In this document: positions 7,715 to 34,048 of the stretch, one piece after another
Layout: each line of letters begins with the position of its first letter
Position numbering within the stretch: position 1 is the stretch's first letter
Assembly (NCBI GenBank): GCA_017499595.2
Contig: CM039005.1
Span: forward strand, 2,852,001-2,916,000
Source of the DNA: Psilocybe cubensis
Taxonomy: Eukaryota
Length of the DNA: 64,000 nt
Direction: 5' to 3'
The notes under the pieces: generated by a model
What the model was told of the DNA's origin: nothing
Database searches by the model: none
Seen by the model: only the letters and a program-made list of their open reading frames with translations
Position numbers and translations under genes: made by a program

Positions 7715-8559
7715 ATTATCAAAGAGATGCTTGAACAATTGTTTGCGTATGAGATTGCTGAGATGGCTTGATTGTTATCATAGTGACGAAGGAGGGATTC
7801 AGCAAAAGTCCGTCTTTTATATGCTGCCCCCTTGTACGTGCGAGCGAATTTGTAACATATATATCTCAGCCACCGATCGTTACCCACCCATTTCAACCAC
7901 CGATTTCCAGTCATACTGTAAGCCTTGCGTAGCTCTTGCACCAAGATAAAGATCGACTAGATTGAGGACATTCAATTTTATAGAATGGTTCGCTGTTGCG
8001 TTTTATTGCACTGGCCATTTAACAGACAAAGATCCATCATGCGGAGCCAGGATCGCCTGCCACAATTGTTTTCTTTTTGAAGCCTATAGCATTCTAGTAA
8101 AACATAAGAGTCAATATTGTTCAATTACATGTTGTCTTGGGGCAAGGATGATGTTGTACTGCACACCTTGTTTTCGAAGAGGTGGGAAACAAAGTGAGTG
8201 AATACGCAGGTACTGCACAGTTTTATTGAAGAAAACAATAAAATCAAGAAATGTTGATGACTTACCTTGTGCAATGAAATTGTCAAGTTCACTAATAGCA
8301 GAACCTTGTTGGACATGGACATTTCGATGGAGTCGGAGACGCCCTCAGGGTGTCAGTACAACGGCTTGGATACATTGATTATTGGCATCATGGTAGGTCA
8401 ACGATAGAGAGTTCCGCTGGCACAAAGCATAGCGTTTGACATAAAAGCTGCCTGAACATCTGGCATGGCTAGGAGAAAGCTTGAAAAAAATCGTACGACG
8501 TTGAAGTTGAAGTTTTGTATTGATCACGTGTGTTTACCCCACTGCAAACCGGCATCGGA

Positions 8560-11500: not shown

Positions 11501-12160
11501 AAGTGAGTACTCACTCATGTATCCATGATCCCCGATCCTAAGCTGACTATCTCCCAAGTCATTCCATAGTCGAGGATGCCTCGGAAACAATCCAGTCGAA
11601 GGAAAGAAGGTAGGGGGGAAAGATATGGGTAGTTGTGTTATACTGGCGCGTCATCGGTATCAACAGATGTTGTACAGGATTAAAGATGTTATCTATAATG
11701 CATAATTTTTGAAATCGATTGATACTCTAAACCGTGAGACTTTTTGGATTTGAAATAGATTCCAACTTCAAGTCGGCTTGTTTGCACGCACACAATACAT
11801 TATATGAAAGCCGACTCTGACAATCCCTAAAAATCTATATGAGCTTGGAACTATGCTTCTGGGAATTTTATACGATACCATGCACCCTGCACGTCATCGT
11901 AAGTCTCGTTGGGGTAACGGACTGCAACCGGCAACCAACCGAACAGCTTGAGCCTGCCGGACGGCTCGACGTGATGAATCAATCGGAGTAAAATCGGAGT
12001 CGAGAAGTGTCAACTGTCGGATCAGCCAAGAACAGCCTGAGGCCAGCAGAATTTTGATGATCACCCAAACTCTGTGTCGAGATGGCGGCCATGCTGGTAT
12101 ATTGTTCAACTAGGCCTTCTCATATCTTCGTTGAGGGCCGAAATATCAAAATATTGAGGG
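8560..12160 (+). repeat. Tandem segmental duplication, copy A (copy B ~12450-15930)
   Basis: aaaaacatgagatt.tagatggtgagccttt starts both copies. Upstream region, gene 5' end and 3' flank align, while the central exon has diverged. Confidence 0.9.
10088..11528 (+). CDS. Orphan, probably disordered Ser/Pro-rich protein (family member 1)
   Basis: Exon ORFs 10043-10288, 10320-11030 (ending ATAVRR/gtaa) and 11298-11528 have splice signals. TATTTAAA lies upstream at ~10021. Confidence 0.55.
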
Positions 12161-12449
12161 AGAAGGGCAATGTAGAATGGTACTTGCTCAGCTATTTGTG
12201 AGATATGCCTCGACAATAACACCGGCATCTGCCCGTGCCCCTCCGGTTTCCTTTAGGGCGGATCTGTAATGGCTATCTCGACTGGATATATAATTTCACA
12301 CTACTCATGGGCAATAAACACTGTACGCCTGACGTGACATCAGCCGTCTTTATTGCACCAACCACTTTCATGCCCGTTCCTGCTCCATCCGACGACAGGT
12401 GCTTGTAAATACCAACGTATTTCCATTGACGGCCCATATTCCCTACATA

Positions 12450-15400
12450 AAAACATGAGATTTTAGATGGTGAGCCTTTTCCGTTTAAAATTCCCGCACC
12501 GTCTTGCTATCAACAGTTCAAACCAAAACACCTCATCACTATGTAGAAAAATTTGTTATATTTGAAAAATTCAATATTACATACGTTTTGAACAGAAATG
12601 CTTGTTTTGAAGCTTGAGTTATAGTAGGAAAACACAACTTTATTCCTGTTGGACCTTTGTGTATGTTAACGCTCAGGCATTACTGTAAGTCAGCAGTTTC
12701 CAGGAGGTAGTGTTCTGAACGACCTTCACGCTATGTGCTTTAAATATTAGCAACAGAATTTGCTTTTTGTTTGTTACTACGTGTTTCAATAGTCACAAAA
12801 TCAGAGTTAGATAACGAAGTACCTATCTGCCTTCGAGGTACGATGGGAATCCAGTACAATTTACTGTAGGGGTTAACAAAGGATCTAGTCCCTTGACCGG
12901 CCATCAACCTCTTCCAACACAGTGATCTCTCTTATCAGAAAGAGGCCGATTGTACACGCGGGTAGATTGATCGAGATTTTCTTTCGCCACTGGACGGAAT
13001 CGCGATTTAGAAGTGCTTCGTCCCTGCGGATTTGGATAATATACATGCTACGAACACCACAGTGACCTTACCTCCTCAACGAGGTTGCAGGACATAAACT
13101 CTGTTTGATTTGACTGGCATGTTTTGTAAAACATGTACGCTTCTGTATCGAGGTAAACAACTTAGCGCTCACGCTCTAAGCCTCAACCACACAGCATGCA
13201 CCTCACGCAGTGGAGTGCGTATCTATCTTCGCCTTTTGTTTGTGTGTGCATTGTCGGAGTTATCTACAGGAGACGTCGGATGGCGCATCTCCCACCCGAG
13301 GATGTAGAATTTCAACCGGAACTTAGGTTCCATTCCACGAGGTGTTATCTTTCGGTCTTTAGTGCGTCTTAAACCACCCAAAAGACGCAAAAAGGAAATT
13401 GCAATGCAACTTCCTGGGAAACGAGATGACATTCACGATTGTGTTTAGGTTGGAGAATTGAATCAGGTATTTCCTGGTAGGACAAAGGGCGGTTGTACCT
13501 CAGAGAACCTTAGAGAGCCTCATGTCGCGTGTTGTTATAACGTTCTTTGTTGTTTAAAGAATATATATACAAGTGACCCATTCAAGTATCGTTATCCCGT
13601 ATTTGAAGAATAGCAAATCATCTTACCCATACTCGTATCCCTCTTCCATCTTCTCCCCCATCGAGGACTCCAGCACGTCTAGCATGCCTACCTTTCGCAA
13701 TGCACCAAGAAAGTACCCAGAAAGTTCTCATCAAGCCAACGGAAAAGGCTCAAATCAAGCCAGCGGAGAAAACTCAAGTCAAGCCAACGGTGAGAAGCAT
13801 GCTGGTCATTCATCGATGTGCCACTCACAATGATTTATAATATCTGACGTCTTCTACAGATTTTATGGCATTCCTAGACTTTGGTATCAGCGACAATTAC
13901 CCCAGTGTTAACCCTGAGGACATGCTGTCCACAGGCCCCGTGTTTGATCCAGATCTTCTGGATTCATTGCATTCATCACTCTACATCCCTGATTTGAGCC
14001 GCAACCTTCATAACGAGCGATCCAAGTCAGCTCATTTCCCAACTTTAAGTGCCAACTCAGGGTTAAATATGGCGACGTATCCGACAATGGGTCGCAGCCA
14101 CACGTCACACGATACGCCGACTGTGGCATGCGCGTCAGTGGAACATCCTGTGTATGTGTATGCGTCAAGTGCTGGAGGTGCACCAACGTTTTTGAGCAGT
14201 CAGGGAGGGGAAAATGCTTGGACACTACCCATACTCCTGACAGCTTCGAAGATACGGAGTGATCCTAACGAGATCGATGGGATAGACGTAGAGATGGAGT
14301 CTGTCCCCGATGCTCGACGCGAGGAAGATATCGAGTGAGTTTCTTCCACTGCGTTTCCAGCGCTCTATCCGTCCGTTTTCTTACAATGCCACCACTCCCA
14401 CATAGCGTCGAAATGTTATACATCAGTGAAAAGATATTCGAGTATCCAGGAGGCCGTGATATTCTTACGACACCATTGGCCCGGAACCCTCTTCCATCGT
14501 CTCCCCCATCGAGGACTCCAGCACAATTAGCTCTTCTACCTCGAATAGCACACCAGATAACCATGCAACTGGTTCAGGTCAGGACATCAAGGGTGAGAAT
14601 TATGCCGGTTGTTCATCAATGTGCCACTCACAACGATTTTGCAGTGTTGACCTCGGCGGAATTTCTGCAATCGTTAGGCTTCGATATCAGTAGTCTTGAC
14701 CTCAATGGTAACATGGAGGTTATACTACTGTCAATCGCCCCGAATTCGAGGAAGCTCTTATATCGAGCACTCCGATCCAGCATATCTGCCTCCATCGAAT
14801 GCGAGTCAGGAGCTACCTATGACGAAGTATCCGACGATGGAAACTATCCAGACGTCACACGATACTCGCTACCGAGTCTCGTTCAAGGAGCCCAAGGAAA
14901 GGCGCCAGTCGGATGCCTAAAGGTCGCACCCGCGATCAAGATACGACGTATGCAGCGTTACTTTTTACACACCTGAGAATTCTCTAAAATTTGGCCTTTT
15001 TCGCAGAGATTAACGGAACCAAGGGTCACTGGACCCGTCAACCGTGTTCGGCGATGGCAATGGTGGCGGGCCTATACCAGGCGAAGTGAAAAAGGAGGGT
15101 AAACAGGGCAAGTGATATGATCACTTGCTATTCCAGAACCAAGCGCCAAAATCCCAGAAGAATGTGGGCCACCTGTGATACCTGCATGAAAAGGCGCGGA
15201 CAGACCAAATACTGACATTGGACCACAAAATAAACCCAAGTGAGTACTCACTCGTGTATCCTTCCCCAATCATAAACTGACTATTTCCCAAGTCTTTCCA
15301 TAGTCGATGATGCCTCGGAAATAGTCCAGACGAAAGAATCAACGTAGAGAGGAGAGATATGCGTAGTTATATCTTACTGGCGCGTCCTAGGAATCGATAG

Positions 15401-15930
15401 ATGTAGCACGCTGAGATTAAAGAATATGTTACCTTTAATGCACAATTTTCGAATCGATTGATCCTTTCCACCGTGAGAGTTTTTGTTATTTGAAATATAT
15501 TCAAAGCTCAAGTCGGCCTGAATGTATATACCATACTCTGCGTGGAAAATACTCTTATTATGCAAGGACATCCGCTTCGCATTATGCTTCTGGGAATTTT
15601 GTCTGATTCTGTGCGCCCCTGCACGTCAGCGGCAAGTCTTGTTGGGGTACGGCAATACTTGCCGAATAGATCATCATCATGAATCAATCGGAGCAAAAGC
15701 GGAGTTAAGAAGTCGAGGTTCAGCCGAGAAGTGCCTGAGGCCGGCATGACATGCCAAAATAATTTTGCAGTTCTCCAATGTGTCAAAGTTTAGTCTGATT
15801 CAGAACCGAAATTGTGGCTCATATTCGCTCATCTTCTATGTTGCAGCTATTTTACAACTCGAACTTGGTATAAGGTTCAAACCTCGCCTGCTCATAGCTT
15901 CTGTGACGGCCCAAAATAGTCAAATATTGA
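12450..15930 (+). repeat. Tandem segmental duplication, copy B
   Basis: Aligns to 8560-12160 but lacks the 9047-9410 insert. Confidence 0.9.
13684..15280 (+). pseudogene. Paralog of the 10088 gene (family member 2), probably disrupted
   Basis: It shares the MAFLDFGISDN.PSVNPED exon. It has an internal re-duplication of its own 5' part at ~14490-14720 and CGA>TGA at 15113-15115 in the frame that reads GKRYD in copy A. Confidence 0.5.
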
Positions 15931-17955: not shown

Positions 17956-18447
17956 TTATCCCAGTTTTGTACACTCAAAAGACGCAATCCTTCGGTAACG
18001 GGGTGGGACACCAATTCTGGGTAGGTTGGCAACATCCCCGCTGAAAGATTGTTCGGGGCCTATGCACTCGATAAAGCTGGCAGGGAAAGTAAGTTAAAGA
18101 TGATGGACACACAGTGGCAGGAACTGACGCATAGAATGCACAAGAATAGCCAGAGGAAATTTCCAAACTCTCCGGTCTGTTTTGCCTACCGAGCGGGAGG
18201 TCGATACAAAAATCGGGGCCGGAATATATAGGAGAGTATGAAGTACCGCGGAAAGAGGTGTACTCATAAAATGTAATGGACATTTCATCGGGGTCCTGCT
18301 TTAGTGGAGTAGGCTACTGTATTAGTGAGAATAACATGAATATAGCGAACATTAACATACCCGCACAACAGTGGGAACGGCTTGTGCAACCATAGTCGAG
18401 GACAGTGCTCCAAAGAGCAGAGCAATAAGGTTAACAGTGAATTTCAT
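17956..18447 (-). CDS. Small secreted protein, beta/gamma-crystallin-like (killer-toxin-like) fold, 3 exons, intact
   Basis: Spliced product: MKFTVNLIALLFGALSSTMVAQAVPTVVR/DPDEMSITFYEYTSFRGTSYSPIYSGPDFCIDLPLGRQNRPESLEISSGYSCAFYA/FIECIGPEQSFSGDVANLPRIGVPPRYRRIASFECTKLG*. It has a signal peptide, a Y/FxxxxFxG Greek-key-like motif, 4 Cys and a terminal SFxC. Confidence 0.8.
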
Positions 18448-19212
18448 GTCCGTGAGAGCTGACAATGAAGAAATCGTTTGGGGTAGCGAGTCAAGCGATT
18501 TGCTGAGGACCTTTATGCTTGCTGGACGCGATTCCTCCAACTTTGACACAGAATGTATAAGAGTCTAATATTAATATTGACAAATCCAACATTGGAATGG
18601 AACAACCCATGAGCCGAAATCAGTGTGAAATTACAAAAATATTATTTAGTACTGATGTCGGAGGTTGTTAATTCTACGTGTTCTAACTTCTAAGCCTTAT
18701 TAGCATTCATTAAATACAAATGATTTTACTTCATAGAATATTCTAGTACAATCTCCGGGACTGAACTCCTATCCCAAGACTCCGTAGTACTTAAGGATTA
18801 GGTACACAATTAATAACAAACTTTTTGGATTCCCCTCTCGGATATAGCCTACGTCTCGCTCTCGCGCGCGCCCTCGTCGTCTTGTCCCCTGCGGTGATTC
18901 GAAGCTAGCGTGGTAGCTTACACCGCCATCTCGTCTCGTCGTGCTCCGTCTCGTTTCGTGTCTCTATCGTTTGGCTAGAAGCCGTGTGGAGCACGCTCGC
19001 TCACACACGCGTTCTGCGAGTCTTGTAGGTGTTGTTGGGTTGTTTCCCACGCCCTCAGGAGCTCGTTGAGCGTATCAGCGGCATATCTCACTGTAACACA
19101 TTCACATATTGTTGGCCAGGATGCCAGTAGACATATCCCAACTGCATTGGAGTACCTGATTTACCTTTAACCAAAACCAGTTCCAATCAATTGTGGTGAT
19201 TAGAGTGTGACA

Positions 19213-19516
19213 CAAGGGGCCCTCCCCGGAGCTTACCGAGAAATCAACCCTACCCTTGAGGTCAAGGGAGTGGCTGTGTTGCTGGTGCGGCAGAGCCTGA
19301 AGCTTGAAGGCCTGACAAGTCACAAGCAAAACTGCCATTGCACATAATTATATTGTGGTTCACGTAGACCTATGTGAACATATTGTAAGCCGACAAAGCA
19401 TGCACTTCTGTCGTCAATATTTGAGGTATAATCATTGGATTGTCGCTCAACACAGCCACTCCCTTGACCTCAAGGGTAGGGTTGATTTCTCGGTAAGCTC
19501 CGGGGAGGGCCCCTTG
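19213..19516. mobile_element. 304-bp MITE with perfect 69-bp TIRs and 8-bp TSD
   Basis: 19213-19281 is the exact reverse complement of 19448-19516 (CAAGGGGCCCTCCCCGG...). GTGTGACA flanks both sides (19205-19212 and 19517-19524). Confidence 0.93.
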
Positions 19517-19747: not shown

Positions 19748-19868
19748 CTAAAAGTCTCTTGTGCACACAAAGGACTTGATGTTTCGGAAAAGGACAGGGT
19801 CACCAGTTGTGGGAAGGTGGGAAACTTCCCCGCTTAGTGATCGTCCGTGGCCTTGGCATAGAACAAAG
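19748..19868 (-). pseudogene. Detached exon 3 of the second crystallin-like secreted protein gene (exons 1-2 at ~32209-32535)
   Basis: Encodes FVLCQGHGRSLSGEVSHLPTTGDPVLFRNIKSFVCTRDF*, which is colinear with exon 3 of the 17956-18447 paralog and is preceded by a TCCAG acceptor. Confidence 0.9.
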
Positions 19869-19959
19869 CTGGACACCTGTAATTACCCTGCTTATATATA
19901 AAACCCTTGCACTGCAATAAAATGCTCCATACATGGCAGCAGGCACTTGCTGCATGGAT

Positions 19960-20500
19960 AATCTATTATCCATTTACTTAGTCTGCCTATCAATTATCCA
20001 TTCCGTTATCCAAGAGCCTTGTTATCCATTATCCATTCCCGTGTGCGCCATTAACAATTGTTTCTATCCATTGTCCGCCGTATCATCCAAAGGGTACATT
20101 ATCCATAGCCCCGCTTCATGATCCAACAGCCGTTATCCATTTCTGTGCGCGCCATTAATAATCTATTCCATCCATTGTCCGCTGTATTATCCAAAGGGTA
20201 CATTATCCATAGCCCCGCTTCATAATCCAACAGCCGTTATCCATGTCTGTGCACCCCATTAATAATCGATTCCATCCATAGTCCGCCCTCTTATCCAAAG
20301 GGTATATTATCCATATACCCCTGAATTATCCAACTGCCCACTATCAATTTCCATGCAAACCATTCATGACCCGCTCTATCCATCATCTGTATTCTTATCC
20401 ATGGGTCATTTCCCCCTTTCATACCACGATATTCATTGCCCTGCGATTATCCAAGAGCCGTTTATCCACTCCCCTGCGCCTTATTCAACACTATCTTCCA
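19960..20500 (+). repeat. Left subterminal array: about 3 copies of a 104-bp unit, dense in TTATCCAT/ATCCA
   Basis: atccata recurs at 20101, 20205 and 20309. Confidence 0.9.
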
Positions 20501-20692
20501 AGAAAACAATTACAATTCCAAGAAAACATACACTATAAATATACAGAATCACTAAAAGGATGTCAAGATGTACAAGGTACGTTCTGTCTGCATCAGCTGG
20601 ATGCGAGCGCAATAAAAAGCTCAAGAGAATTGAAAAAAACAGTCTGAATGTCCAAGATCACGTGTCAAAAACAAATGCCAGCGCATCACGCC

Positions 20693-23544
20693 TCAAGCCT
20701 TCGCTTTCTTTGTTCTTTTTTCCTTCCCAGTTTCCTCCGCCGCCTTCCTCTTGTTGTTCAGTTTCGCCTTTTGGAAGGTGTTGAAGGTGTTGAGTAGGTC
20801 ACTTACTGCTAATTCCCAGAGACCATCCGAGGCTTGAGCCGAGTACCACCACTTTAACCCAACCATCACTGTCAACAGCCCATTGGGTCCACCTTTCCGT
20901 AACGAAGCCATTGAATCTTTTGCCTTCGCAGTCTCGAACGACAACGGAAGGGAATTCGGGGTTTTGGTTTGACGCCACGCCGGCTGTATGGAGTTCCACC
21001 AGGTCATCCATGACTTCTGAAATTCGTCTTGACGGATAGCTGGGATAGCGGTGTATTTGCGGGATGAGGAAAGCCATTTCCCGAGGGCTGTTGGTCTGCC
21101 TTTCGCGGGGAGCCTCAACTGCAACGGTAATCAGTATCTTTATCTGCTTTTGTGCATGATCCGGGACTCACAGAACTCGTATCCATCTCAGCAATTTCCA
21201 TTCTCTCGAAACTCTCCCATGCGCGCACACATTCCTGCCATTTTTCTACCTCGATATCTTTGAATAGATATTCACTCGCTGCCAACAGCCATGCTGTGGT
21301 CTGTGGAGCATCCTTCGAAGCTGCTGCCTTTCTGTTACGACTACGCGTTGCACTGGCGTCCAAGTTCTCGCTTTTGTCTGGAGCCGCAGTCAAAGGTGCA
21401 TGCATGCCACTCTCGGGAATAATTGGATCGTTTACTGCATGGTTGGATAGAACTCCAGCTGAGTTTGTGGCGCTGAGCACTGGCGCTGACGTCTGGGCAG
21501 GGACTATGGTGTGAGGTGCTGAGATGGAATGGTTTGGGTCCAATAGCATCGGTGCGTTTGCCTGTCCTGCCATCATATCCTGACTTTGTAACATTTGGCC
21601 ATGTAAACCAGGAAGCGTCACTGTGTTGTTTGTGTTGAGGGCAAGTGCGGTTCCCATCATGTTTGGATCCGCTGCGTACTGTTGCAGGGCCAGGTCAATT
21701 CTATCCCATTCCTCTTCTGAAAAGTTCAAGGTAAGTCCATCGCCCCTATTCGCATCACCCGCTTGTAGCCGCATCATATCCTGGCCTACAGCAGCTGTCA
21801 ACTGGTCTATGTCTTGGCCACCAACTCCATCCGTCATAGAAATGGCAGCACCATAAGGCAAGAACGCAGCAACTGGATTTGGGGCCACCTTGGCCTGTTG
21901 AGGTAGAGGATTGGCAGGCGGAAGGAAGTTTTGTGCCTCAATGGTAGCGTGGGTAGCACCATTTGTAGCTGGGTAACAAGGTGGGCTTGGACTTGCCACA
22001 CTTTGAGTCGGTTGCACCTGAGCTGGTTGGACTGTGCTTTGTGTCATGACAGGAGCCTGAGCAAAGCCGATGGCCACCGCCGGCGCCGCTGTCATAGAGG
22101 CCATTGCAGTCTGTTGTGCGGCCTCAGGGGGAGTATGAGCTGCAGTTATGGTGTTTGGAATAGGGCCAGAAAGCTGAGCGGCACTTCCCATGTGAGCATT
22201 GGTTGATGAGATGGGTACTGATGCAGCTGTATAAGTTGGATGGAAGGGCACCTGATTGATAGCAATTGGAAGGCCAGAAAGCTGAGCGACACTGCCCATG
22301 TGAGCATGGGTTGATGAGGTGGGGACCAACGCAGCTGGGTCGGGCACCTGATTGACAGCGATTGGAAGTGCATTGCTCTGAATCTCTGGTTGTGTAGTCA
22401 CAGGGGGAGTTGTTTCCGACAAGACATTTTCTTGCCCTGCGTCGCCGGTTTCAACTTTGCTGGTACTGGCAACTTGGTTCTCTTCTGGCTTTGCCTTTGA
22501 GCTATTGAGAGTTTGTCGGTCGCGATCCTCTTGCGCTAAAGAAAATGGTTGATTAGGTCACTATGTGTTAGAAATACAGATAAATTGCTCACAGAAAACA
22601 TTGTATAAAAAAAGTCTGAACGGCGATAGCACATGTTGGTAAAAATGTTCATTCGCAATAGAAAACAGTTGTTCATATTTGTCTCGACCGTTGTGGACAG
22701 CGACAGTACGAATTTTGCCTTGATCAGCAGGCTCAGGTCCTCCAGCAATTACTGTGAAAACCCATCCGGTACGACTGCTCATTTCATCTATAAACGCTTG
22801 GATAGTTTCCGGCAATGTCAAGAGATTACTAACTTTGTATCAGTAAGACTTTAGCACAAAGAATAGATCACTTACATTGCGCATTCTTCTGGAGACATGA
22901 CTTCCGGCATGTCAGGAATTTGTCCCTTCAGCTCCTTGAGCTTTGCCAACTCGGCACGAATTTCCGCCTTTACCTCATCAGACTCGTCATTCCAGGCCTC
23001 CCCGGTGCACTTGTTGATGATTGCAATTCGGTGACCTTCAGGATTGGTGCGGAGAGCCTCTATTACTCGTGGCCTAATGCGTTCATCATAATATTTCTTG
23101 GAATACAAATTTGTTTCCGAGAGAAGTCGGGGAGCGTTGTTGCCACCAATAACAATGGTCGGACCTCGCCGATGTTGGGTGCCGGCCCCACGATTATTAA
23201 ACCAATTAACAATTTGCTGTTACAAATATGACCTCGTCAAAGAAACTCATACACTAAGTATGAATTGTGCTTACGTTTTTCCGCAACTTAACCCATTCTG
23301 CATGAGAAAGTTCGGTTTTCGTTTGAGGCAAAACAACAGGTGCATTTTTCTTTTTCTTCTTCTTTTTTGGAACAGTCATTGGTCTAACTTCAGCCTCAGG
23401 CGTAGGCCACAAGACAAAAAATTCTTGGTATATTTTTGTCCAAAAATTGGGGGTGGTTTTTGTACGCTGGGACGCCTGGAACTCAGGAACCTTGGCGGAT
23501 AGAAACTCAATTTGTTCGGGAGTCCCCCACGGTAGCGGCGGCAT
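20693..23544 (-). CDS. Transposon accessory protein 1 (about 5 exons): homeodomain-helix-like and HMG-box-like segments, low-complexity middle, Trp-rich C-terminal domain
   Basis: Colinear exon ORFs 23254-23544 (FWTKIYQEFFVLWP), QIVNWFNNRG, 22872-23108 (YSKKYYDERIRP...EAWNDESDEVK), 22561-22821, 21115-22422 and 20693-21124 (WWNSIQPAWR...GGPNGLLTVMVGLKWW). Confidence 0.75.
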
Positions 23545-23846
23545 TTTGATCTAAGTATAGCAGTTGTTCTAAGAATAAATGAATGTCAAATTGTTTGTTT
23601 TTTAAGCGCACGCAAACTCACCTCAAATAACAGAGTTAGACTTAAGGTCCAGAAAATGCAGTAAGACCTTCTAGCTACTTCTTCGATTTGACGGCAATAG
23701 CTTGCTTACATTATTGAGAGATTCACCGCAATTTACCGTGTAACTGTACAGTTGCTGATGCTTCTTTGGACTCTGCATATAAAGATGCTCCTATCTGCCG
23801 CAATCTTATCCTTAACTCCCTACTCGCAAAAAAAACCTCTCACAAA

Positions 23847-24916
23847 ATGGCTCAACAAAGTACACCTCCCCCAACTCTCCCTAATTCTACCGTCCCTCCC
23901 TCTACCGCCCCTGCAAGCCGTATAATGTCTACCCGTGTTGGCGACGTTATCAATCTCCTTCTTGCACTAAACAATGCTGGTACGTGCCCATTTTTGAGTT
24001 TCATGTTAATTTCAACTTGTTTACATTTAATCAGGATTAGAAGTTGTTCGTACACCCGATGGCGTTGATCATGCTTCAGGGTTGGAAAACCTTGCCATGG
24101 GGGAGCTTATCTTGATTCTCCAAATCATGGGCATTCATGTCAAGGGTAATCGCGCTACTGCTGCACCCCCTCCTCCTTCTGATAGTAAGTCATCTTCGAC
24201 TCCCTTTAACCTAATGTTTTATTTAATTGGACTGTAGGCCGTGATCCCTTGGTCCAAGAGATTGAACAGATGGTTATTTCATCTGCTCGTCGTCAGGCTA
24301 TTAATCTTTTCTTTAGGCTTACCAATGGGCCGTTGAGTAAGTGAACACTGTTCATACTATCATGCTCAGCACAATCTAATTAATTTTAGCCGTCCCACCT
24401 GTCATTCTTGAAGAGTTATCATCAACTGTGGCTCCCCCTCCTTCGTCTGTTGAACCACAGGCCACCGTCACTGATCCTGCCCTACTTCCTCCAAAGTCCC
24501 AGTCTGCCTCCGACACTGTCATGCCCAAAGGCTTTGTGTGCATGTCCTGCAACACGTATAACCCTATTCGCCCATCTGAAAAGCCAGTCTACGTTGTGTT
24601 TTGTGGTACAGATGTGGGGGTCTTTGACCATTGGTATGTTCCACATTCTTTTGAGATTGCATTTTGCTCAATTTAACACATATTTAACAGGAAAGATGCT
24701 CAGAGCCTTGTTTCTGGCATATCTCATGCTTGCCATTGTCGTTATAATAGTCGCGAGGAGGGTGAGAGGGCGTTCCAAGCTGCTTTGACTGCCGGAAAGG
24801 TTCGCATACTTGGTAATCCTATTGCTGCGCCTGGAGCTATTGTCTCTTCCTTGTCCCCAAATGCCCCCAATGGCACCTCTGGCTCCTCCAGCGAGGCCTC
24901 TAGTAGCTCGGATTAA
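23847..24916 (+). CDS. Transposon accessory protein 2 with CxxC motif and RNase H1 N-terminal (Cauli_VI, hybrid-binding)-like domain
   Basis: MAQQSTPPP start. The spliced C-terminus reads GFVCMSCNTYN...VYVVFCGTDVGVFDHW/KDAQSLVSGISHACHCRYNSREEGERAFQAA, matching YxVxxGxxxGV(F/Y)xxW...V.G.......(F/Y).S.EEA. Confidence 0.75.
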
Positions 24917-25266
24917 TGAGTAGACTTACTCCACCCTCGGGGTTTTTCCTTTTCCGTTCAATATCGTGTAGACAGCACCATTTGTCACCGCGTATGAAAA
25001 GTTTCCCCGCACTTTTAGTAGCACCACTTGTATCTCTTGTACATCTCATTTTGATTTCTTGTCTGTGTTTCCGAATATATCTTGAACTTGTGCTGCTCTC
25101 CATATCCGTGTGAATGAAATCTTCAATAATCAAATAAAATATTATTGAATGTCTCTTTTGTAGAGTCATTATATTATGCCATGTACCCCCATGCACCGTA
25201 GCTTCAATGTCGAACGATATACAATGATGTTTGTACTATATTAAAAGTCCAATAGAAGTAATAACC

Positions 25267-25960
25267 CTATTGCGAAACCTTTTGAAATTCAAAGGATTTA
25301 GCATTGTAGTTGCGTTCAACGAATTCAAGGTCTTCCATTGCAGTCAATTCAATCTCTTGCAACCAAGATTGTGTCTTCTCTAGCAGTTTTGCAAGAGCGA
25401 CTGTCTTATTCCACTCTGGGCCAACTCCTGAACACATATATATATGGTTTTTATATCGGGAAATTGGCCCAAGAAAGTGCTCTATCTTGTCAACCGATTC
25501 CGATAATTCGTGCATGTCTTGATTGCTGATAAACTGGAGGCAGATTGCCTCAGTATGTGCAATAGGATCCGATTTGATAAAGGTGTTGAAGCGCCGGTAG
25601 ACTCGAAGAACTTCGTCCAACCAAGTGGCCGCCGGTGGCTTTGACTTGGAGACAGGCTCTTGTTCAACAGCCTGTGCTTTACGTGCCGTTTCAATTCTAG
25701 AAATGAAGATTAATTCAATCTATAGAGATTATGCACATTCATAATCAGCAGGAATACCTTTTTTGTTGGATGCGAGCATATTTTCTTCTGCGACGTCGGT
25801 TTATGCTATCCTTGCATCTAAAAAACATTATAAAACATGTTTGTAACCAGATTTATGGGAGGAAAACAACTGAATGCTACTTCTCATAATATTTCTTGCT
25901 CTTCTGCCTATTTGCGGCAAGTTTCTCAGCTTCAGAAAAATACTTGCGCTGTCGTCCCAT
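25267..25960 (-). CDS. Transposon accessory protein 3, basic N-terminus and helical C-terminus
   Basis: ATG 25960 MGRQRKYFSEAEKLAANRQKSKKYYEK, then introns, then last exon ORF 25267-25620. Confidence 0.65.
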
Positions 25961-26540
25961 TGGTAAAGGTGAAAGCCAGGTAGCGATTTATTAGAAACTT
26001 TGCATTACTTACACGCCATTTCAGGGCTTCGTCTGACTTTTTTAACTACCAGGTAAACCCCCCCTCCAAAGGGTACCAATTGAAACATTGAATTAATCTA
26101 CACTCAACTCTCGTCATCCAGAGCTTTACAACCATCTGTGCCGATGTTCTATGGTTTTTGAACTCTGCAAGATAAGTTTTCAGGCTATGTCTAGACTGGG
26201 ATTGAAAATGTAAAATAATAATAGAAGACCTTACCGTCATCCATTTGTTCGTTGGCTATCAATGGCTGGCAGCACCCTAATGTCAACCTTCAGCTTCATT
26301 ATCCATTTACTAGTCCTTTATTGATTGGGACTTACTTTACCGTCATCCATTCATTCAATTGTTATCCATGAGTTGTTTGCAACACTCTTGTCCTCGTTGT
26401 CCATTTCCTTGCCTGTTATTGATCAATTATTTTTGCTGACTCGCTGCTTATAAGTTGGGATGAACGCCACAAAACTCATCTGCATCACCTTTGACCTGCC
26501 CATAGACACCACTATCGCGTTTATCAGCAACTCACAACCA

Positions 26541-27069
26541 ATGGCCAAGGTTAAGCAAAGACGCCGTCGTACAGATAATTTCAAAGGTCCATCGGTGAGT
26601 AGACTTGAGCCTGATTGTTATAAAATGTGATCATTTTTACTAAATTGTCGTTCAAATTTGTAGGCAGTCACAATAGAGCCCGGCATTAGACCAGTTACAT
26701 TGGATACGAAGTCCAAACAAGACAAATTTCTCGCCGATGCTGGCCCATATTATCGCCAGGCCAAGTCTAAGGGAGAAAAGGAAGAGTTTCTTCACGAAAT
26801 CAGCCAACTTTGGTTTAGAATTTGGCCGGAGGATCCGTTGAATACGGCAGACATTGATTTTGCACGTCACAGACAAAAGAATATTATGAAGGTGAAAGTT
26901 GTGTTTATATTTTTGTATGCCGCTAACTAACGTCTATATGTTACAGAAAATCAGAACAAGGCTGTTACTCCTCGGTGCCTTTGGGATTGTGGAAGGAGAT
27001 ACGTTGTGGAGGGACTTTATTGCTGCCAAAATGCACGAGCTCCATCCTGACAAGCTACCCTCTGTCTGA
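26541..27069 (+). CDS. Transposon accessory protein 4 (3 exons, small)
   Basis: MAKVKQRRRRTDNFKGPS/AVTIEPG...FLHEISQLWFRIWPEDP...NIMK/KIRTRLLLLGAFG...DKLPSV*, with canonical GT-AG introns. Confidence 0.7.
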
Positions 27070-27144
27070 TCTAGCCACTGTTTTGTTCGGCTTAATGTAC
27101 CTACTACATAGTGGTCCAGATTTTAAATTTGCACAAATTATACT

Positions 27145-30100
27145 CTAGTGACACTCAACCATTTTGTATGCATTACGGCCTTCTGACATGGTCGTCAACT
27201 TCTCTGTTACACCATCCCATTGTTTCGCACAACGGTCACCTATATCACGTCGTATATCTGCCTGTTTCTTTGCATAAGCAATCTTACCAGAATTGATAGC
27301 TTGTGCATCTCGGTTAGGTACATCCGTCGAGTCGATGATATCCTGTGCACGAGAATCCCACTGAGCGGCTTGCCAAGCAAAAAAAGCAATAACACGGCGC
27401 ATCTCCTCTGCTAATAATACACACTCCTCTTGCCAGCGATGTGCGCGTGCACGGGCTTTGCACCATTCGATACGAAGAGCTGGACACTAGCATTTGTTTG
27501 CATTCAATTAGGTAAGGTAAAGACAACACACCTGCCTGTGTACACTTTTCGGCGTCTTCGCCCATACCGTGTACCTTCCATATCCAGGACAGTTTCTTGC
27601 GGCCTTCACTTCCAGAGTCGTCCATAGAGCTCAGTCCTCTAACATCAGTGTCCAGCAGTGGACGAAGGATATCACGCCACGTGTAGTATACCGTTGGCGT
27701 TGAAAGCAAATCAAGAGCTTGATACGCAACATTGTATCGCGCTGTTGCAAATTTAATCTTTTCTTCAACAGCTGCGAGCAACGTCAAGCTTCTTGTCTGC
27801 ATACGCTGTCCTCGTGAGTGTCGCTTTTTTGAGTTTAGCATATGTGAGCGAAGGAGTAAGAAAGCACGGAGGTTGTTGAGGCAATCTTCAGCCTGGGCAT
27901 ATCGGTACTGCGATTCGCATTTTAGCAATATGTGGGATGAAAATCGGATGGTTTCTGTGTTGTAGGAAGGCAAATATAGCTTGATATCCTGTACCGCTAC
28001 TGGTGTCTCAGCCTGCAAGTTTTCGCGCGCACGCAGAGCTGCAACTGCAGGCATATAAAGGTGCTGTATATTTATCCAAGCATCAATGCGTCGTTTTAAT
28101 GAGTTTGATCGTTCGAGAATTTTAGTCTGTTGGATGTTCGTAGAATGGGCTCCAAGTTTGGAGATGTCAAGCGCAAGTCGTGCTCTAGTCTTGTTTGTAA
28201 CCATGTAAAAAATAGCCTATAAACGACGTACTGTGATTCCTCAAGCTGTAAGCCCTGTGATATCAAGACACTCGGAGTTACTTCCTCATGTAAAGTAGTC
28301 ATCTCTCCGCGTTTTAATGCATCTGAGTCCTCACGAGCTAATTGAAGACGAACATCGGATTCCTTGACAGAACCTAGCAATGCACCATAAACAATAGAAC
28401 AAGAATCAGAAAAATACACGTACTATTCTTCGGAATCACATAGGGATTCGGTTGACTGGAGTCCTTTTCCCATGTCAAACACATCTGGGTCCATTCCGAC
28501 GTCGATTCTTCTGGCAATGCAGCGTCAAACTCAATGAACGCCTCGACCTGTTCTTGTCGCTCTTGAATAGCTTCCTTCGCTTTCCGTAAAAATGTTTCAA
28601 CTAAAGTGCTTGTCAATATATGTGCATAGATTGCAGAATATTACGACGTACCAATCGTGATAATTTTTCGCCAGTTATAATCTCCAAAATGGTCATCCAA
28701 TGTGTCGTTCCGAGACCCTGGCCCCATTTCCTTTGTGCTGCTGGCTATACCGTTTGCCGTTGCCCATCCTCTCTCTGGTGCCTCCCCATCTGTGCGCCCA
28801 ACTCCCGGAGTATAGTTGAAAGAGAAAGACGTTTGGCATTTCTGAATATGAGCAGCAAGGTGGAATTTTGGTACGAGGTAGACAATGGAGAGATTTGATG
28901 GATCGGAGAGCACATTCTTAGGATATAATTGGCACCTTTTCATGAGATTGATCCACCATTGGCAGGCAATGTCGTAGGAGACAACAAGACGGAGTAAAAG
29001 TGTGGCTGCGATTGTTGATAAGAAGAAATAATCCATATTAACGTATCTACGGCATCATGTGAGTCATGTTGACATGCAAGCATGTGACTGAAGACCTTAC
29101 CTTTCACCCTTTTGTAAGTCTCCTACTGCCACGGGTCGCTTCATGTCGTGTCGACTACATTCGGCTGTACCAAGTCCACTTGCTGCTGTCCCATGTCCAC
29201 CTCGTGAGTTAGCCGATTTGATAGCATCGTGGTTATTGCATGAGCTCTTTTCATCTGCAACTTGACCATCGTAGTTTGCCAAGTAGTTTTTGAATTTGCA
29301 ACTCTCAACCATATAGGCATATCCATGATTAAGCCCAGGGTCTCGCTCATCTGTAGATACGTTCATTCGCTTCAAACGAAAGTTGGCATCAATAGCTATA
29401 AAAAGAGAATAAAGCCATCTATTTTTGGACGTGACAATCAGACCCAATTGCCAGTGGACAACACCAACGAGTAAAAATTGGTACGTACTGTTCTGATTCT
29501 GGCCTCTCCTTCCAATTGTCGGGTAGATTGATGCCCGGGTGGGGACATGCAGGACATAGAACAGCACATTCACCCTCTTTAGTCCCATTAACACCGGTCT
29601 CAGAGTGACCTCGACCCATCCGTTTGAGGAGACGTACATGACGCCACTCACGTATGATCCTCAAGAAGACAGGATATCTGTCCTACATATTGAATATTAA
29701 AGATAGCAGGATAATAGAAGAAATGGAAGAGCTCACTGGTGGTGCCTTTGTGCCGGTGTTGTCTGTCAACCGTGATAATGTAGAGTAATACTCGTATCCC
29801 GAGACCTTCGAGTTAAATGAAAGGAGCTGAAAGTGTTCCAGCACATCAAATGTAGCCGCTGTTTTGGGATCGCCTACTGTAGAAGGAAATAAGCGGGCGC
29901 GAAGAAGTTGGATGGGCTTGGATGGTGCAGAAGGGCACCCGCAGTAGTCTAAGGCAATTTCATGGATTCCTGTACGCGCAATGACCACAAATTCGTCGTT
30001 GAAAGCTACCATTGGTATAGGACAGTCATCATGTCCCAGCTGCACTCGCATTCCAAGTTTCTTGAGGCTGGTCCTGCGAAAGTAATGTCCAGTCCAGACC

Positions 30101-30845
30101 TGCAAATTTGTCAATAATTCAGTATCATCATAGCCAACCCCACTCGCCTCGATTCTATGAAATGGGTTGACCGAATGAGACCGGAGAACACAAGCGAGAC
30201 ACAACAGAGATCCGCTCCAACAGTCTTTGCAGCGAAACGCGCCTGCTTCGAGGTCCGAAATACACCCAATTTCAGAGCATTTCTGGAGATTTGCCTGCCC
30301 ACCAATACCCTCCAGCCGGAGAAACTCTTCAACGTAGGTGTCAATATGCGGAGTCCAGAAGTGGATGGGATGTGTCTAATCGAATATGTGAGTGGTAGGT
30401 GCTGAAACACACATCTATTAGAGCAGGAAACTGTACGTACCGATTGTGTTTTTCGTTTTTTCTGTGGAACCTCTTCTTCAGGATCAGCTTGAACCTTATC
30501 TCCAGTCTTCAAGTTTGGCTTGAGATAATTCTTTAGCCCCAATGCCTCCAATTCGCATTCTGCCATTTCTTCCAACTCAAGATCACCATCAAAAATCCTA
30601 TACGGAGATTCTTCGCTCAGCACCCAATCAAGTCGAGGAGTAGGCGATTCCACAGAGCCTAGAGGAGGGGGTGTGGGAAGCATAGGCTGAATTCCTTGCG
30701 GCAGCGGCATCCGTATGGTATGGTGCGTGCGTCCATGGTATTCAGTGTGAATGTCGCCAAACGATGCTGTTTTCGCGTCTCGTTCATCAGGAGAGATATA
30801 TTCGTCATAATAAACCTTTTTCTTGCGATTCACTCGGCGTTTCAT
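27145..30845 (-). CDS. KDZ transposase with CxC2-like cysteine cluster
   Basis: Exons encode FRCKDC...CLACVLRSH..NPFHRIE, QLGHDDCP, TGIHEIALDYCGC, CAVLCPACPHPGINLP, AIDANFRLKR, ECSRHD...GDLQKGERY, SYDIACQW, VPKFHLAAH, GRTDGEAPERGW and LDDHFGDYNWRK. No stop or frameshift was noticed. One GC-AG intron lies near 30147. Confidence 0.93.
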
Positions 30846-30969
30846 GTTGTAAGTTGAAAGAACCTGCGAGCTAAGTGTATACACAAAAGAGACAAGGAAG
30901 CTTTGAACAGAAACGTCATTTCCAAGGAGACTAGAAGCGGAAACAAGAGGATGTATAACTCATACTGAT

Positions 30970-32065
30970 ATGGATTATTAGCTCAGAGTGGTTGATGGAT
31001 ATTTTACAAGGAAATGGATAGACTTCAAACATTGATGGACAGTAAGGAAAGGTATCAATGACAGTGAATGATGGGAAATGTTACGGGGAACCAAATTAAT
31101 AAGTGCCTGATCTTCACGGGTGACAAGCGGGATGGATTAACGGGAGGCCATGGATGACAAGGGCATTCAATAATCAACGTTGGTATGGATGGAGACTGCG
31201 CACTGCACGGGTGTCAAGAGTGATGGATAAGTAGAGGGGCAATGAATGATTAGGGCAATAAATGAGCGCGATGGATAATGAGAAGAGAAATGGATGTTGA
31301 GGGTGATGAATAATGAACGCACATATCGATAGGCGCCTGCACTACGCGGGTGTCAAGCCTGATGGATAATCAGAGAAATGGATGTCGAGGGCGATCAATA
31401 ATGAATGTGGGAATGGATGAGGGGCAGCCTGTGCAATGGTGGAGGGCGATGGATAATAAGAAAGGCAGTTGATGTCGAGGATGATGAATAATGAACATAG
31501 ATATCGATAGGCGCCTGCACTGTGCGGGTGTCAAGCCTGATGGATAATCAGAAAGGCAATGGATGTCGAGGGATATCAATAATGAACGTACATATTGATA
31601 GGCACCTGCACTGCGCGGGTGTCAAGCGTGATGGATAATCAGAAGGGCAATGGATGTTGAGGGAGATCAGGCTGATGGATAATTATATGGGCAACGGATG
31701 ACAAGGGCAATGAATAATGAACGTACATATCGATAGGCGCCTGCACTGCGCGGGTGTCAAGTGTGATGGATAATCGGAAGGGAAATGGATGTCAAGGGAG
31801 ATCAGGCTGATGGATAATCATATGGGCAACGGATGACAAGGGCAATGGATAATGAACGTACATATCGATAGGCGGGTGCACTGCGCGGATGTCCAGCGTG
31901 ATGGATAATCAGAAGGGCAATGGATGTTGAGGCCCATGGATGACATACTAGTTATGGATTACGAAGGGGTATGAATGACAGCGTGGGTATTGAATAATGG
32001 CTCAGCAGTTTGGGGAATACTATGGATAAAGTTCTAATGTATCTATCATAAAGGCGTTGGATAAT
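30970..32065 (-). repeat. Right subterminal array, ATGGATAA-rich, higher-order repeat of a ~45-bp monomer
   Basis: gataggc recurs at 31328, 31506, 31597, 31732 and 31867 (spacings 178, 91, 135, 135). Confidence 0.9.
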
Positions 32066-32157
32066 TATTGATGGGGAATGCATTGCCGTGGCTCATATAT
32101 GAGGTATGCGCAAGGTCTTCTGGAGGTTGATATATAAGAACGACTGCTACGCCTCAG

Positions 32158-32535
32158 CTGGAAGGGAAATTAAGTTAAGATGTTATATAAGCAGTGGAAG
32201 GAACTGACGCGTAGAAGGCACAAGAATAGCCATTGGAGATGACCAAACTTTCCGCTCTGTTTATCCATTTGGGCGGGAGGGTGATACATAGATCAGGACC
32301 AGAATATTCAGGAAAGTATGAAGCACCGCCGAGAGAGGGTTCGTCAAAAAATATAATGGAGAATACATCGGGGGCCTGGTTTAGTGGTGTGGGCTACTGT
32401 ATTAGTACGAATAACATGAATATAGTAAGCATTAAGAATTTAACATACCCGCGCAACAGGGGGAGCGGCTTGTGCAACCATAGTCGAGGACAGTGCTCCA
32501 AAGAGCAAAGCAATAAGGTTAACAGAGAATTTCAT
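32158..32535 (-). pseudogene. Exons 1-2 and intron 2 of the second crystallin-like secreted protein gene, interrupted by the KDZ element
   Basis: MKFSVNLIALLFGALSSTMVAQAAPPVAR/APDVFSIIFFDEPSLGGASYFPEYSGPDLCITLPPKWINRAESLVISNGYSCAFYA. Intron positions match the paralog. Confidence 0.9.
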
Positions 32536-33663
32536 GTCCGTGAGGGCTGACAGTGAAGAGATTGCTTGGGGTAGCGAATCAAGCAATTTGCTGAGGACCT
32601 TTATTCTCAGCGCTGGCCTCGTTTATATATGTGGATGCAGTCTAGTATTTGATAATACTGCTCATGTTTGACTTCTTAAACATCTCCGACTTCGATAAAG
32701 AATATTCTAGTCTCAGCAGAGCCAACGCATGGAATGGAAGAAACCATGAGCCGAAATTAATATATAGTATTGAATTTTCAATCCTGGGAACACGAACAAC
32801 ACAGAGTTATATACATCTTCTAATCGGGTACGCCACCCTCCACCGTGAAATTTTTCTATAGCATCAAAGATCGTAATGGCATGGGCAACATTTGAGCAGA
32901 AGGCAGATGGTTGAAAGTGCGAAATAGGGTGGTAAGCCTGGAGGTGGAACTGAACTGAGAAAGGTCCTTTCTAGGGAGACAAATATTCTTTGATGCACTG
33001 TGTCGTGTCAACTTTCAAGCGCACTTCTCCTACTGAGCCGCACTACCTTAGGTTAGACTTGGGTTAAATACTGGTTTTAAGTAACACCTCCATTATTCGG
33101 CTCCGGGGTGCCTTAGCGAAAAATAATTTGCGGTGACTAAGCCAAAATAAGAACGCATATTTGCGCACTAATAGACATACTATTTGCAGTGATATTGTTC
33201 CGTACTCGCATGGCAAGACGTCCTGGAGGTGACAAATAGAAGGGTAGCATGAAGCTACCTCGTTTCTTACGAAGAAGCTATGGTGAAGCCATGGAATTTT
33301 GGTTGTAGTACGCGGAAGCGCGTGTGGTTAACAAATATCAAAGAAACGACGGGATACAAAGGATGTAGTGTACCGACTGTTGTCAATACTTTGAATCGAT
33401 AATACTCAGAAGAATCTTTAATACGTAAACGAATATACCTTATGTTATTTCAAGCATGGTCTCATCGGAGGCTTTGGAATGTAGTCTTCATTACAGTCGA
33501 CGATTGTCTTTTGATTATGGCCAGGTATGCTGATACAATATAGTCAGAAATACGTGAGGAATACGGGACAGCGAACGCATGAAAGGAGCTCATACATTTT
33601 CAATAGTCCTCAGCTCATTGCTCCAGTCTCTACTGCACAACAAACCACTCACAAACCATCAAC

Positions 33664-34048
33664 ATGAAGTTCACCATCAGCATCTTCTCCCTGGTCTTTG
33701 CAGCTGTGTCCTCAGCTCTGACTGTCCAAGCCGCTTCCCCCATTGCTCGTGTACGCAAATATCTTCCATTTCAATAGGAAATCAATACCATCCACTATAT
33801 ACAGTTAACATGACTTTTAATAATAAGCAACGATTGAACTATACGCCATATCTTACAGCAGTAGTCCTACGAGCATCAATTTAGTGCCATCTAATATACT
33901 GGCAATTTACAACGGCGTCAGATTTGGAGAAATATGCACCATCTGCGCAACGGACATACCATGCTACGAAATAATTACGCTCCCGGCCCCGAACACCTAC
34001 ACGGGCACGAACACATACATCCTCCATGTAACCCAGCTCCCATGTTGA
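33664..34048 (+). CDS. Possible third, divergent or decayed small secreted protein of the same family
   Basis: Signal-peptide exon MKFTISIFSLVFAAVSSALTVQAASPIAR followed by a GT donor at about the equivalent position. Downstream LAIYNGVRFG resembles ITFYEYTSFRG, but the rest does not align. Confidence 0.4.

Follow-up and report, generated by a model that had tools for sequence, protein, structure and literature searches.

A very recent insertion of a Kyakuja-type KDZ transposon across a 3' splice site of a Psilocybe cubensis gene, with probable loss of function

Introduction

Kyakuja elements are described, in the part of the source used here, as having 7-bp target site duplications (TSDs), no terminal inverted repeats (TIRs) and the termini 5'-CA..TG-3' (Kojima 2025, PMC12730594). 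The KDZ1-3 elements of Cryptococcus are mobile KDZ elements of 9-11 kb which insert in introns as well as exons and knock genes out, and for KDZ1 an antisense non-coding RNA is annotated (10.1101/2024.08.15.608186; PMC12810828). Insertions of KDZ2/KDZ3, 9-10 kb in length, were recovered in introns and exons of Cryptococcus FRR1 as loss-of-function mutants (Huang 2024; PMC12810828). It should be borne in mind that the FRR1 mutants were selected, and therefore cannot reveal tolerated insertions.

Removal of a transposon at the RNA level has been described or considered in other systems. In introners and TSD-assisted intron gain the acceptor AG lies inside the TSD (PMC11282704, PMC12130899); maize Ds1 carries donors and acceptors of its own, located no more than 35 bp from its ends (PMC5432752); and SOS splicing removes DNA transposons from RNA, including cases beside host splice sites, by a process that needs base-paired inverted terminal repeats (PMC12779559). 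Fungal splicing has been inferred to proceed mainly by intron definition, with a mean intron of 64 nt in C. neoformans (McGuire 2008, as far as consulted). In the literature searched, whose coverage left most subscription journals outside, we found no report in which splicing removes a KDZ element as an intron.

Here we describe an element lying in a 64,000-nt window of P. cubensis DNA (assembly GCA_017499595.2, contig CM039005.1, positions 2,852,001 to 2,916,000), to which all coordinates refer. Our reading, to which we assign a probability of roughly 0.86, is that a Kyakuja insertion very recently broke its host gene, through splicing to the proximal copy of a duplicated acceptor and consequent loss of function.

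Results

The element and its borders

The element and the duplicated target comprise the following features.

19874..32155, minus strand: Kyakuja-type KDZ DNA transposon, 12,282 bp, ends GAG...GTG (from termini, TSD and domains)
27145..30845, minus strand: transposase gene in 10 exons, open over 1069 aa, with CxC2 and KDZ domains (modelled, not RNA-confirmed)
26664..26930, plus strand: accessory ORF (exon) recurring beside KDZ transposases (13/80 related loci)
25267..25719, minus strand: accessory ORF (exon) recurring beside KDZ transposases (11/80 related loci)
24380..24788, plus strand: accessory ORFs (exons); 24380-24673 matches 7/80 loci, 24390-24785 matches 0/80
20693..23550, minus strand: multi-exon accessory gene with a long low-complexity middle; exons match 8, 6, 5 and 1 of 80 loci
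31146..31927, no strand: 5' subterminal tandem repeats in two families with units of 135 and 45 nt (repeat scan)
20026..20337, no strand: 3' subterminal tandem repeats, three units of 104 nt (repeat scan)
32156..32162, minus strand: proximal TSD copy TCCAG/CT, forming an in-frame stop with the first element bases (sequence)
19867..19873, minus strand: distal TSD copy TCCAG/CT, candidate for the far acceptor, with 8/20 pyrimidines and lacking a strict YTRAY (sequence)

The 12,282 bp of the element (32155-19874, minus strand) are bordered on both sides by the 7-bp duplication TCCAG|CT, the longest at the element borders, with minus-strand copies at 32162-32156 and 19873-19867. The duplication covers the acceptor of host intron 2 together with two exon bases, exactly as the initial annotation had proposed, and the borders match those of the empty site described below. 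In a blind scan of a 21-kb control stretch, this pair ranked 1st of 46 candidate TSD pairs, with 17/30 terminal matches as compared with 13 for the next candidate. The in-register match of the termini peaks at shift 0 (17/30, against 6-12 at other shifts), which favours a 7-bp TSD over the formally possible 6-bp TSD plus a terminal T. Apart from these 17/30 in-register matches, the repeat scan found no inverted repeat between the element ends.

The transposase gene lies on the strand of the host gene, and its exon model includes one GC-AG intron (30147-30100). Matches above cut-off were obtained for PF18758 (KDZ; E 2e-18 and 3e-40 on two exons) and PF18803 (CxC2; E 4e-40), while the accessory gene at 20693..23550 gave only a weak HMG-box match below cut-off (E 0.0096) and none of the element ORFs scanned matched TET/JBP. 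As judged from its sequence, the element is an intact and presumably autonomous cut-and-paste KDZ transposon of Kyakuja type.

When compared with the first 400 letters of each of 14 of the 38 Kyakuja rows of Table S1 (PMC12730594), the element resembles Kyakuja-1_LB, -2_LB and others in its KDZ transposase, its 7-bp TSD, the lack of true TIRs, its 3' TG end, its subterminal repeats and its size, which falls within the 9-23 kb of the 14 rows. It begins with GA instead of the stated 5' CA, as do 6/14 of the consensus rows examined. Like Cryptococcus KDZ1-3 it is a large KDZ element inserted in a gene, but in the sources consulted those elements carry CxC1 rather than CxC2, long TIRs and 8-bp (4-8) TSDs (Huang 2024; PMC12810828).

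The host gene

The host gene and its tandem paralog are organized as follows.

32449..32535, minus strand: host exon 1, ATG at 32535, signal-peptide-like N terminus (RNA contig 32448-32581, run X11)
32376..32448, minus strand: host intron 1, 73 nt, GT..AG (RNA joint 32374->32448 in X11)
32209..32375, minus strand: host exon 2 (RNA, and 100% match to P0001 residues 30-84)
32158..32208, minus strand: host intron 2, proximal form, 51 nt, complete (sequence)
19748..19868, minus strand: host exon 3, 39 codons plus stop (similar to the C-terminal third of full-length relatives)
17956..18447, minus strand: intact 130-aa paralog in tandem with the host gene, introns at matching positions (P0002 = JR316_0009366)

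The proximal form of intron 2 has a donor GTCAGT starting at 32208, two YTRAY branch candidates, 16/20 pyrimidines and a CAG, its acceptor ending at 32158. The RNA set the acceptor of intron 1 at 32376, a correction that yields product sizes of 85 and 124 aa for the two splice outcomes of the initial annotation (immediate stop or full protein), both of which could be reproduced. Use of the proximal acceptor gives GCC TGA and an 85-aa product; use of the distal acceptor, which ends at 19869 and defines a 12,340-nt candidate intron from the donor at 32208, leaves the frame open to the stop ending at 19748 (124 aa), as does the empty allele. The public entry JR316_0009372, which represents a gene model instead of a measurement, corresponds to the 85-aa truncation.

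At least three full-length relatives of the host gene are present on the same contig, and the paralogs JR316_0009366, JR316_0009302 and JR316_0009355 are 122-130 aa long. Exon 3 aligns to the conserved C terminus of the full-length family members, and the paralog intron matching host intron 2 is 52 nt long. A homologous-protein search with exon 2 as query gave no match. PF08964 (Crystall_3) was matched below cut-off in 5/10 proteins scanned (E 2e-4 to 0.04), P0001 and P0002 being without match; the Atlas scores for this beta/gamma-crystallin-like lead were under 0.9, and the structure model of the paralog (pLDDT 41) was too poor for a fold search. Most likely, the host gene belongs to a multi-copy family encoding small secreted proteins, and its filled allele is null.

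Empty alleles and age of the insertion

DNA runs X2, X12 and X5, three out of 12 runs listed besides two presumed RNA runs, were examined, and the insertion site is empty in all three. The empty-site joint, 19866->32156, skips 12,289 letters with 7 shared letters, and thus confirms the borders independently; it is supported by one contig each in X2 (depth 20) and X5 (depth 23.8), and by 37 reads with 31 starts in X12. Depth over the element is essentially zero in X12 and X5. Over 719-731 nt, 0 letters differ between the window flanks and the contigs that span the site in X2 and X5, and two further junctions of the same element, with unrelated flanks, were found in X2 and X11.

The absence from 3/3 DNA runs, the identity of the flanks with the empty alleles and the intact 1069-aa transposase bear out the earlier suggestion of a very recent insertion, which is probably confined to the lineage of this isolate. 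The open exons had also been taken as a hint of retained function; since they are identical to those of the empty alleles, no decay of the filled allele would be expected yet, and the open frames show recency only.

Discussion

Which acceptor is used

The 7-bp staggered cut usual for Kyakuja would here have happened to straddle the intron-2 acceptor, and for this reason the acceptor is present on both sides of the element. On the proximal side the 51-nt intron remains complete, from the donor through branch and pyrimidine tract to the AG, so that a spliceosome pairing nearby sites would be expected to join exon 2 to the proximal copy, with a stop two bases later. The filled allele would then give an 85-aa fragment without the conserved 39-aa C-terminal third, or its message would be degraded or silenced, and would be null either way. 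Such a loss may be tolerated because the insertion is new and full-length relatives lie on the same contig. The duplicated acceptor is most likely a by-product of the normal 7-base target duplication, and not a sign of splicing-out or of targeting.

Alternatively, the filled allele could be rescued, if the donor at 32208 skipped the proximal acceptor and the 12,340-nt intron were removed to restore the 124-aa protein; part of the host transcripts in the carrier strain would then be freed of a 12.3-kb transposon as one intron, across the introns and gene ends of the element itself. This path is in frame and seamless, and TSD-derived acceptors are a documented route from transposon to intron (PMC11282704, in the part consulted). 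In addition, in X11, the one run examined of two presumed RNA runs, the sole intron-2 joint is exactly 32209->19868, with GT..AG ends and a contig depth of 19.6, the element family is transcribed, and the proximal, truncating junction was not found, no X11 contig lying on 31582-32208. The initial annotation had proposed precisely this exon 2-exon 3 junction (32208->19868) as a check, and the junction was indeed found, but the check is confounded because an empty allele, such as those of all three DNA runs, yields the identical junction. In X11 the 3' end of the element adjoins another flank, and at 22204 the element transcript does not agree with the window copy. The simplest view is thus that this strain has the element at another site, and the junction is probably the product of an empty allele.

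The architecture of the locus also argues against rescue. Between the donor and the distal copy there are 53 acceptor-like sites (counting the proximal one and not the distal one), 52 of them besides the acceptor of the intact proximal intron, and a decoy is found close to the distal AG:

19877..19882, minus strand: decoy acceptor TTACAG/G in the element terminus, 8 nt upstream of the distal acceptor, giving an out-of-frame product of 98 aa (sequence)

Of 16 local introns, 6 were observed in RNA and 10 are modelled; they measure 47-73 nt, and the distal path would require one 169 times the longest. Genes of the element on the same strand should end the transcript, and pairing of the element ends is no better than in shuffles (-23.6 against -22.8 +/- 3.8 kcal/mol, 115/300 shuffles being as good). 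Most introners, moreover, are non-autonomous (PMC12130899, in the part consulted). An argument against the distal site from its branch point is weakened, as a relaxed motif lies 15 nt upstream and strict YTRAY is also absent from 6/16 local introns. On balance, we consider removal of the element as a 12.3-kb intron unlikely. If true, a mushroom would hold a seamless transposon-intron the size of a gene, and the limits of intron definition could be probed on a natural example.

The described splicing systems, as far as their sources were consulted, differ from this case. The element shares with introners an acceptor AG inside the TSD and a seamless removal that is possible on paper, but it creates no donor: the acceptor pre-existed, its proximal copy keeps the whole native intron and competes, and the donor for the distal copy is the old host donor (PMC11282704, PMC12130899). 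It is also autonomous and 12 kb long, its removal is a candidate only, and its other copies lack the same signal, YAG being found on the element strand at 0/2 other element junctions and 1/10 related ends. As with maize Ds/Ds1 (Wessler 1991 cited in PMC5432752), a DNA transposon lies in a gene and RNA-level removal is conceivable, but this element starts with GAG and has no donor before the stop; a Ds-like route through a donor inside the 5' end can be discarded, since the first two element bases, GA, already complete the stop. SOS splicing relies on inverted terminal repeats that this element lacks, its end duplex being no better than shuffles, and the account consulted (PMC12779559) describes it in nematodes and human cells, with fungi unmentioned.

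Possible misassembly

A second alternative is that the filled site is an assembly chimera, with a repeat copy misplaced into the gene. Among the matches listed, the filled site appears in 0/3 DNA runs, and X2, a possible source run, spans the empty site at normal depth in a single continuous contig of 731 nt. A mis-join would not, however, produce a perfect 7-bp duplication, the length published for Kyakuja, at the exact termini, and independent junctions agree with each terminus at single-base precision (19874 in X11; 32155/32156 in X2). The same data are accounted for by a fresh transposition in the culture that was sequenced, and a chimera appears quite improbable.

Target preference

The initial annotation had also raised, from this one site, a target preference for acceptor-like sequence. 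In such a case Kyakuja transposases would favour a YAG in the 7-bp site, and insertions would tend to duplicate 3' splice sites. We compared 12 other target 7-mers, of which 2 come from junctions of this element and 10 from related 3' ends at metagenome loci; these 7-mers are one-sided and mostly from other families. The 10 ends are those on the transposase strand among 13 motif matches; the three on the other strand (L032, L062, L071), whose 7-mers contain no YAG in element sense or complement, were dropped, and one weak extra blast end (L027) was left out of the tally. For 6/10 of the related ends, confirmation came from an abrupt fall of the in-family match, which is 29-37/40 within the end and at background level beyond it. 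The motif search of the metagenome loci gave no paired 5' ends, and a blind search for complete elements with a TSD on both sides, which covered 16 of the 80 metagenome loci, recovered the window element as a control but yielded no convincing pair, the best reaching 15/30.

Besides the present site, a single further end (L076, followed by GTTGCAG) has a YAG on the element strand, that is 1/12 with 1.5 expected; on either strand the count is 3/12 with 2.9 expected, and at positions 3-5 it is 0/12. A preference of 50% has P = 0.003, with a 95% upper bound of 38%, and on these 12 7-mers acceptor targeting can be set aside as very improbable. YAG occurs on a given strand in 13.3% of window 7-mers outside the element, and an insertion would duplicate a real acceptor at about 2% of positions in the 499-bp host gene; the coincidence is thus uncommon per insertion, yet expected somewhere in a genome-wide scan.

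Significance

For insertions of this kind, the junction test is uninformative unless the genotype of the RNA donor is known. The filled allele suits the measurement of acceptor competition, at 51 nt versus 12,340 nt from the same donor. For a little-studied group of transposons, the analysis adds 12 one-sided target 7-mers without splice-site bias and a conserved 3' end motif. The locus appears to be an ordinary but clean case of a live Kyakuja element knocking out a P. cubensis gene, documented with its exact ends, empty alleles, other insertion sites and an intact transposase.

The interrupted gene and its surroundings

The gene that hosts the element starts at 32535 on the minus strand and has three exons, its intron-2 donor (GTCAGT) reading from 32208. 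The minus-strand 7-mer TCCAG/CT occurs twice, with 12,282 bp between the copies, as a target site duplication (TSD). The relevant features are:

32535-19748, minus strand: host gene
32162-32156, minus strand: proximal TSD copy
32155-19874, minus strand: Kyakuja-type KDZ transposon
19873-19867, minus strand: distal TSD copy
18447-17956, minus strand: tandem paralog of the host gene, same exon plan, intron 2 of 52 nt

Splicing to the proximal copy gives GCC TGA, an immediate stop, and splicing to the distal copy (a 12,340-nt intron) leaves the frame open until the stop ending at 19748. These two outcomes, as well as the TSD copies and the donor on which the initial annotation based them, were re-read in the sequence and hold. 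The RNA run X11 relocated the intron-1 acceptor to 32376, so that the predicted products have 85 aa (proximal) and 124 aa (distal); the public gene model (P0001, JR316_0009372) is the 85-aa form, and the named protein records give Psilocybe cubensis as the host. The exon-3 segment and its two cysteines are common to full-length relatives of 109-130 aa, three of which lie on the same contig. Profile matches in these relatives, all below cut-off, provide a lead that the family may be beta/gamma-crystallin-like, and loss of the last 39 of 124 residues would most likely destroy the domain. On the plus strand, a signal-peptide type exon (33664-33750) is 48% like host-gene exon 1, is followed by no exon-2 match, and may be either a further paralog or a remnant.

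Local gene duplications abound here: several tandem blocks in 3294-15409 and 50443-58206 (spacing 3.5-6.6 kb, 70-95% identity) contain ORFs that gave no Pfam matches. A 304-bp MITE (19213-19516; 69-bp perfect terminal inverted repeats, 8-bp TSD GTGTGACA) sits 230 bp past the host-gene stop. In the DNA runs X2, X5 and X12 this MITE is deeply covered and joined to many other flanks. Another repeat lies at 18750-19077, where depth is raised, many letters vary, and contigs of X12, X5 and X11 break off as loose ends at 19014 and 19077; it may be an LTR or a small mobile element. Inverted arms at 58618-58839 and 63212-63523 (112 nt, 82%, about 4.7 kb apart) are possibly an old TIR element.

Can the element be spliced out?

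Removal of the element as a 12.3-kb intron would restore the full protein, and exon 2-exon 3 junction reads had been proposed as its signature. Such a junction is indeed present in X11, which contains spliced joints and was taken as an RNA run: one 350-nt contig (depth 19.6) joins 32209 to 19868 with GT..AG ends. The host gene is thus expressed, and exon 3 is confirmed as its true final exon. However, the same junction is the ordinary product of an empty allele. Nothing in X11 lies across 31582-32208, the bin depth of 0.22 being fully accounted for by 7 exon bases. In X11 the element 3' end (19874) continues into a different flank, and the transcript of the element departs from the window copy at 22204. 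Both points are most simply explained by an empty allele together with a copy of the element at another place. Since either allele could yield it, the junction counts neither for nor against removal of the element by splicing.

The local signals argue modestly against the distal acceptor. The proximal intron is complete: it measures 51 nt and offers two YTRAY candidates as well as 16/20 pyrimidines. A strict YTRAY is missing at the distal site, whose 8/20 pyrimidines match the single poorest of 16 local introns. Of two AGs a short way upstream, the nearer (TTACAG/G, in the transposon terminus) is out of frame. The argument is no more than modest because strict YTRAY is also absent from 6 of the 16 control introns and a relaxed branch motif lies 15 nt upstream of the distal acceptor. 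Distance is the stronger argument: the 16 local introns range from 47 to 73 nt, and between the donor and the distal copy there are 53 acceptor-like sites. McGuire (2008; PMC2397502) inferred that fungal splicing proceeds mainly by intron definition. The element ends do not base-pair, so that neither looping nor SOS-type excision (PMC12779559) is favoured. Cryptococcus KDZ2/3 in FRR1 introns and exons gave resistant loss-of-function mutants, obtained under selection (10.1101/2024.08.15.608186; PMC12810828). A search mostly outside subscription journals found no published case in which a KDZ element is spliced out like an intron. Rescue by splicing appears highly improbable.

Excision leaving both TSD copies (19867-19873, 32156-32162) would give acceptors 7 nt apart, the second restoring the frame. 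Such an allele, which might keep partial function, was not found in X2, X5, X12 or X11.

The transposon

CxC2 (PF18803) and KDZ (PF18758) domains were found above cut-off in the element exons. A model with nine canonical-looking introns, one of them GC-AG (30147-30100, needed by the frame), yields an unbroken 1069-aa transposase on the host-gene strand; no X11 contig covers this gene. The ends read GAG...GTG, with subterminal tandem repeats and weak in-register likeness (17/30). According to section 3.2 of Kojima (2025; PMC12730594), Kyakuja elements make 7-bp TSDs, lack TIRs and end in CA..TG, and 6 of the 14 Kyakuja rows examined from its Table S1 start with GA. By domain, TSD and ends, the element is thus assigned to the Kyakuja type. 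Of eight accessory ORF pieces, six are found again next to KDZ transposases at 5-13 of 80 related metagenome loci, and the other two at 1 and 0; no TET/JBP domain was found among the element ORFs scanned.

X11 also contains a spliced transcript antisense to the 480-aa minus-strand ORF of the element:

20757-22590, plus strand: antisense transcript
21127-21191, 21552-21611, 21731-21791, 21981-22052, plus strand: its GT..AG introns (X11 RNA)

Its longest ATG-started frame is 64 aa, and its depth (24-64) is the deepest regional RNA signal. Another copy of the element is the likely source of this RNA, which is probably non-coding. An antisense RNA is annotated for Cryptococcus KDZ1 as well.

Age of the insertion

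Of 14 listed runs, three DNA runs and one RNA run were compared with the window. All three DNA runs contain the empty site, at which 19866 is joined to 32156 and 7 letters are shared. It is seen in one X2 contig at depth 20, in 37 X12 reads with 31 starts and in one X5 contig at depth 23.8. X2 is marked as a possible source, which leaves X12 and X5 as the independent runs. Element depth is practically nil in X12 and X5. In X2 it is about twice the flank, with the element 5' end joined to another flank. No filled junction appears among the rows displayed, but X2 may have one among 77 further loose ends and 145 further pieces. The contigs spanning the joint, 731 nt in X2 and 719 nt in X5, differ from the window in no letter. 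Since the three runs are empty and these flanks identical, the insertion is polymorphic and very young, and is possibly private to the assembled isolate. It follows that the three open exons, previously read as fitting either a very recent insertion or retained function, carry no information on function, the empty-allele contigs having the same letters. An assembly error, to which the empty runs might point, is slightly less probable than rescue, since a mis-join would not produce a perfect 7-bp duplication exactly at the element ends.

Target sites and the conserved terminus

In the 80 loci, 13 matches to a terminal motif, CACC..ATRTAT (read inward), were counted, where shuffles gave 1.7; 10 of the 13 are on the transposase strand. 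Six of these ten ends belong to two families, whose similarity is 29-37/40 up to the terminal GGTG and drops to background right beyond it. The ten ends and two other junctions of the window element provided 12 one-sided target 7-mers, most of them from other families than that of the window element. YAG was found in 1/12 on the element strand (1.5 expected), in 3/12 on either strand (2.9 expected) and in 0/12 at the position it has in the TSD of the window element; it was also absent from the three motif matches left out. A 50% preference gives P = 0.003, while a weak bias may exist (upper bound 38%). The suggestion that the element seeks acceptor-like sequence, raised by the single site, thus found no splice-site enrichment to sustain it and is hardly credible; chance would duplicate an acceptor at about 2% of positions in the host gene.

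L003:13230, L008:6517, L042:4542, L050:6612, L070:3054, L077:11886 (metagenome loci) and window 19874: conserved Kyakuja-type 3' terminus

Across fungi, this terminus has an ATAT-rich block that lies some 19-26 nt away from the terminal GGTG, and in the window element the block is also present at equal offset from the 5' end. In a group described as lacking TIRs, it is a candidate binding signature for the transposase.

We conclude that the insertion is genuine and recent, that the transposon is of a known kind and its normal TSD covers an acceptor by coincidence, and that the host-gene allele is very probably (roughly 0.86) truncated or silent.
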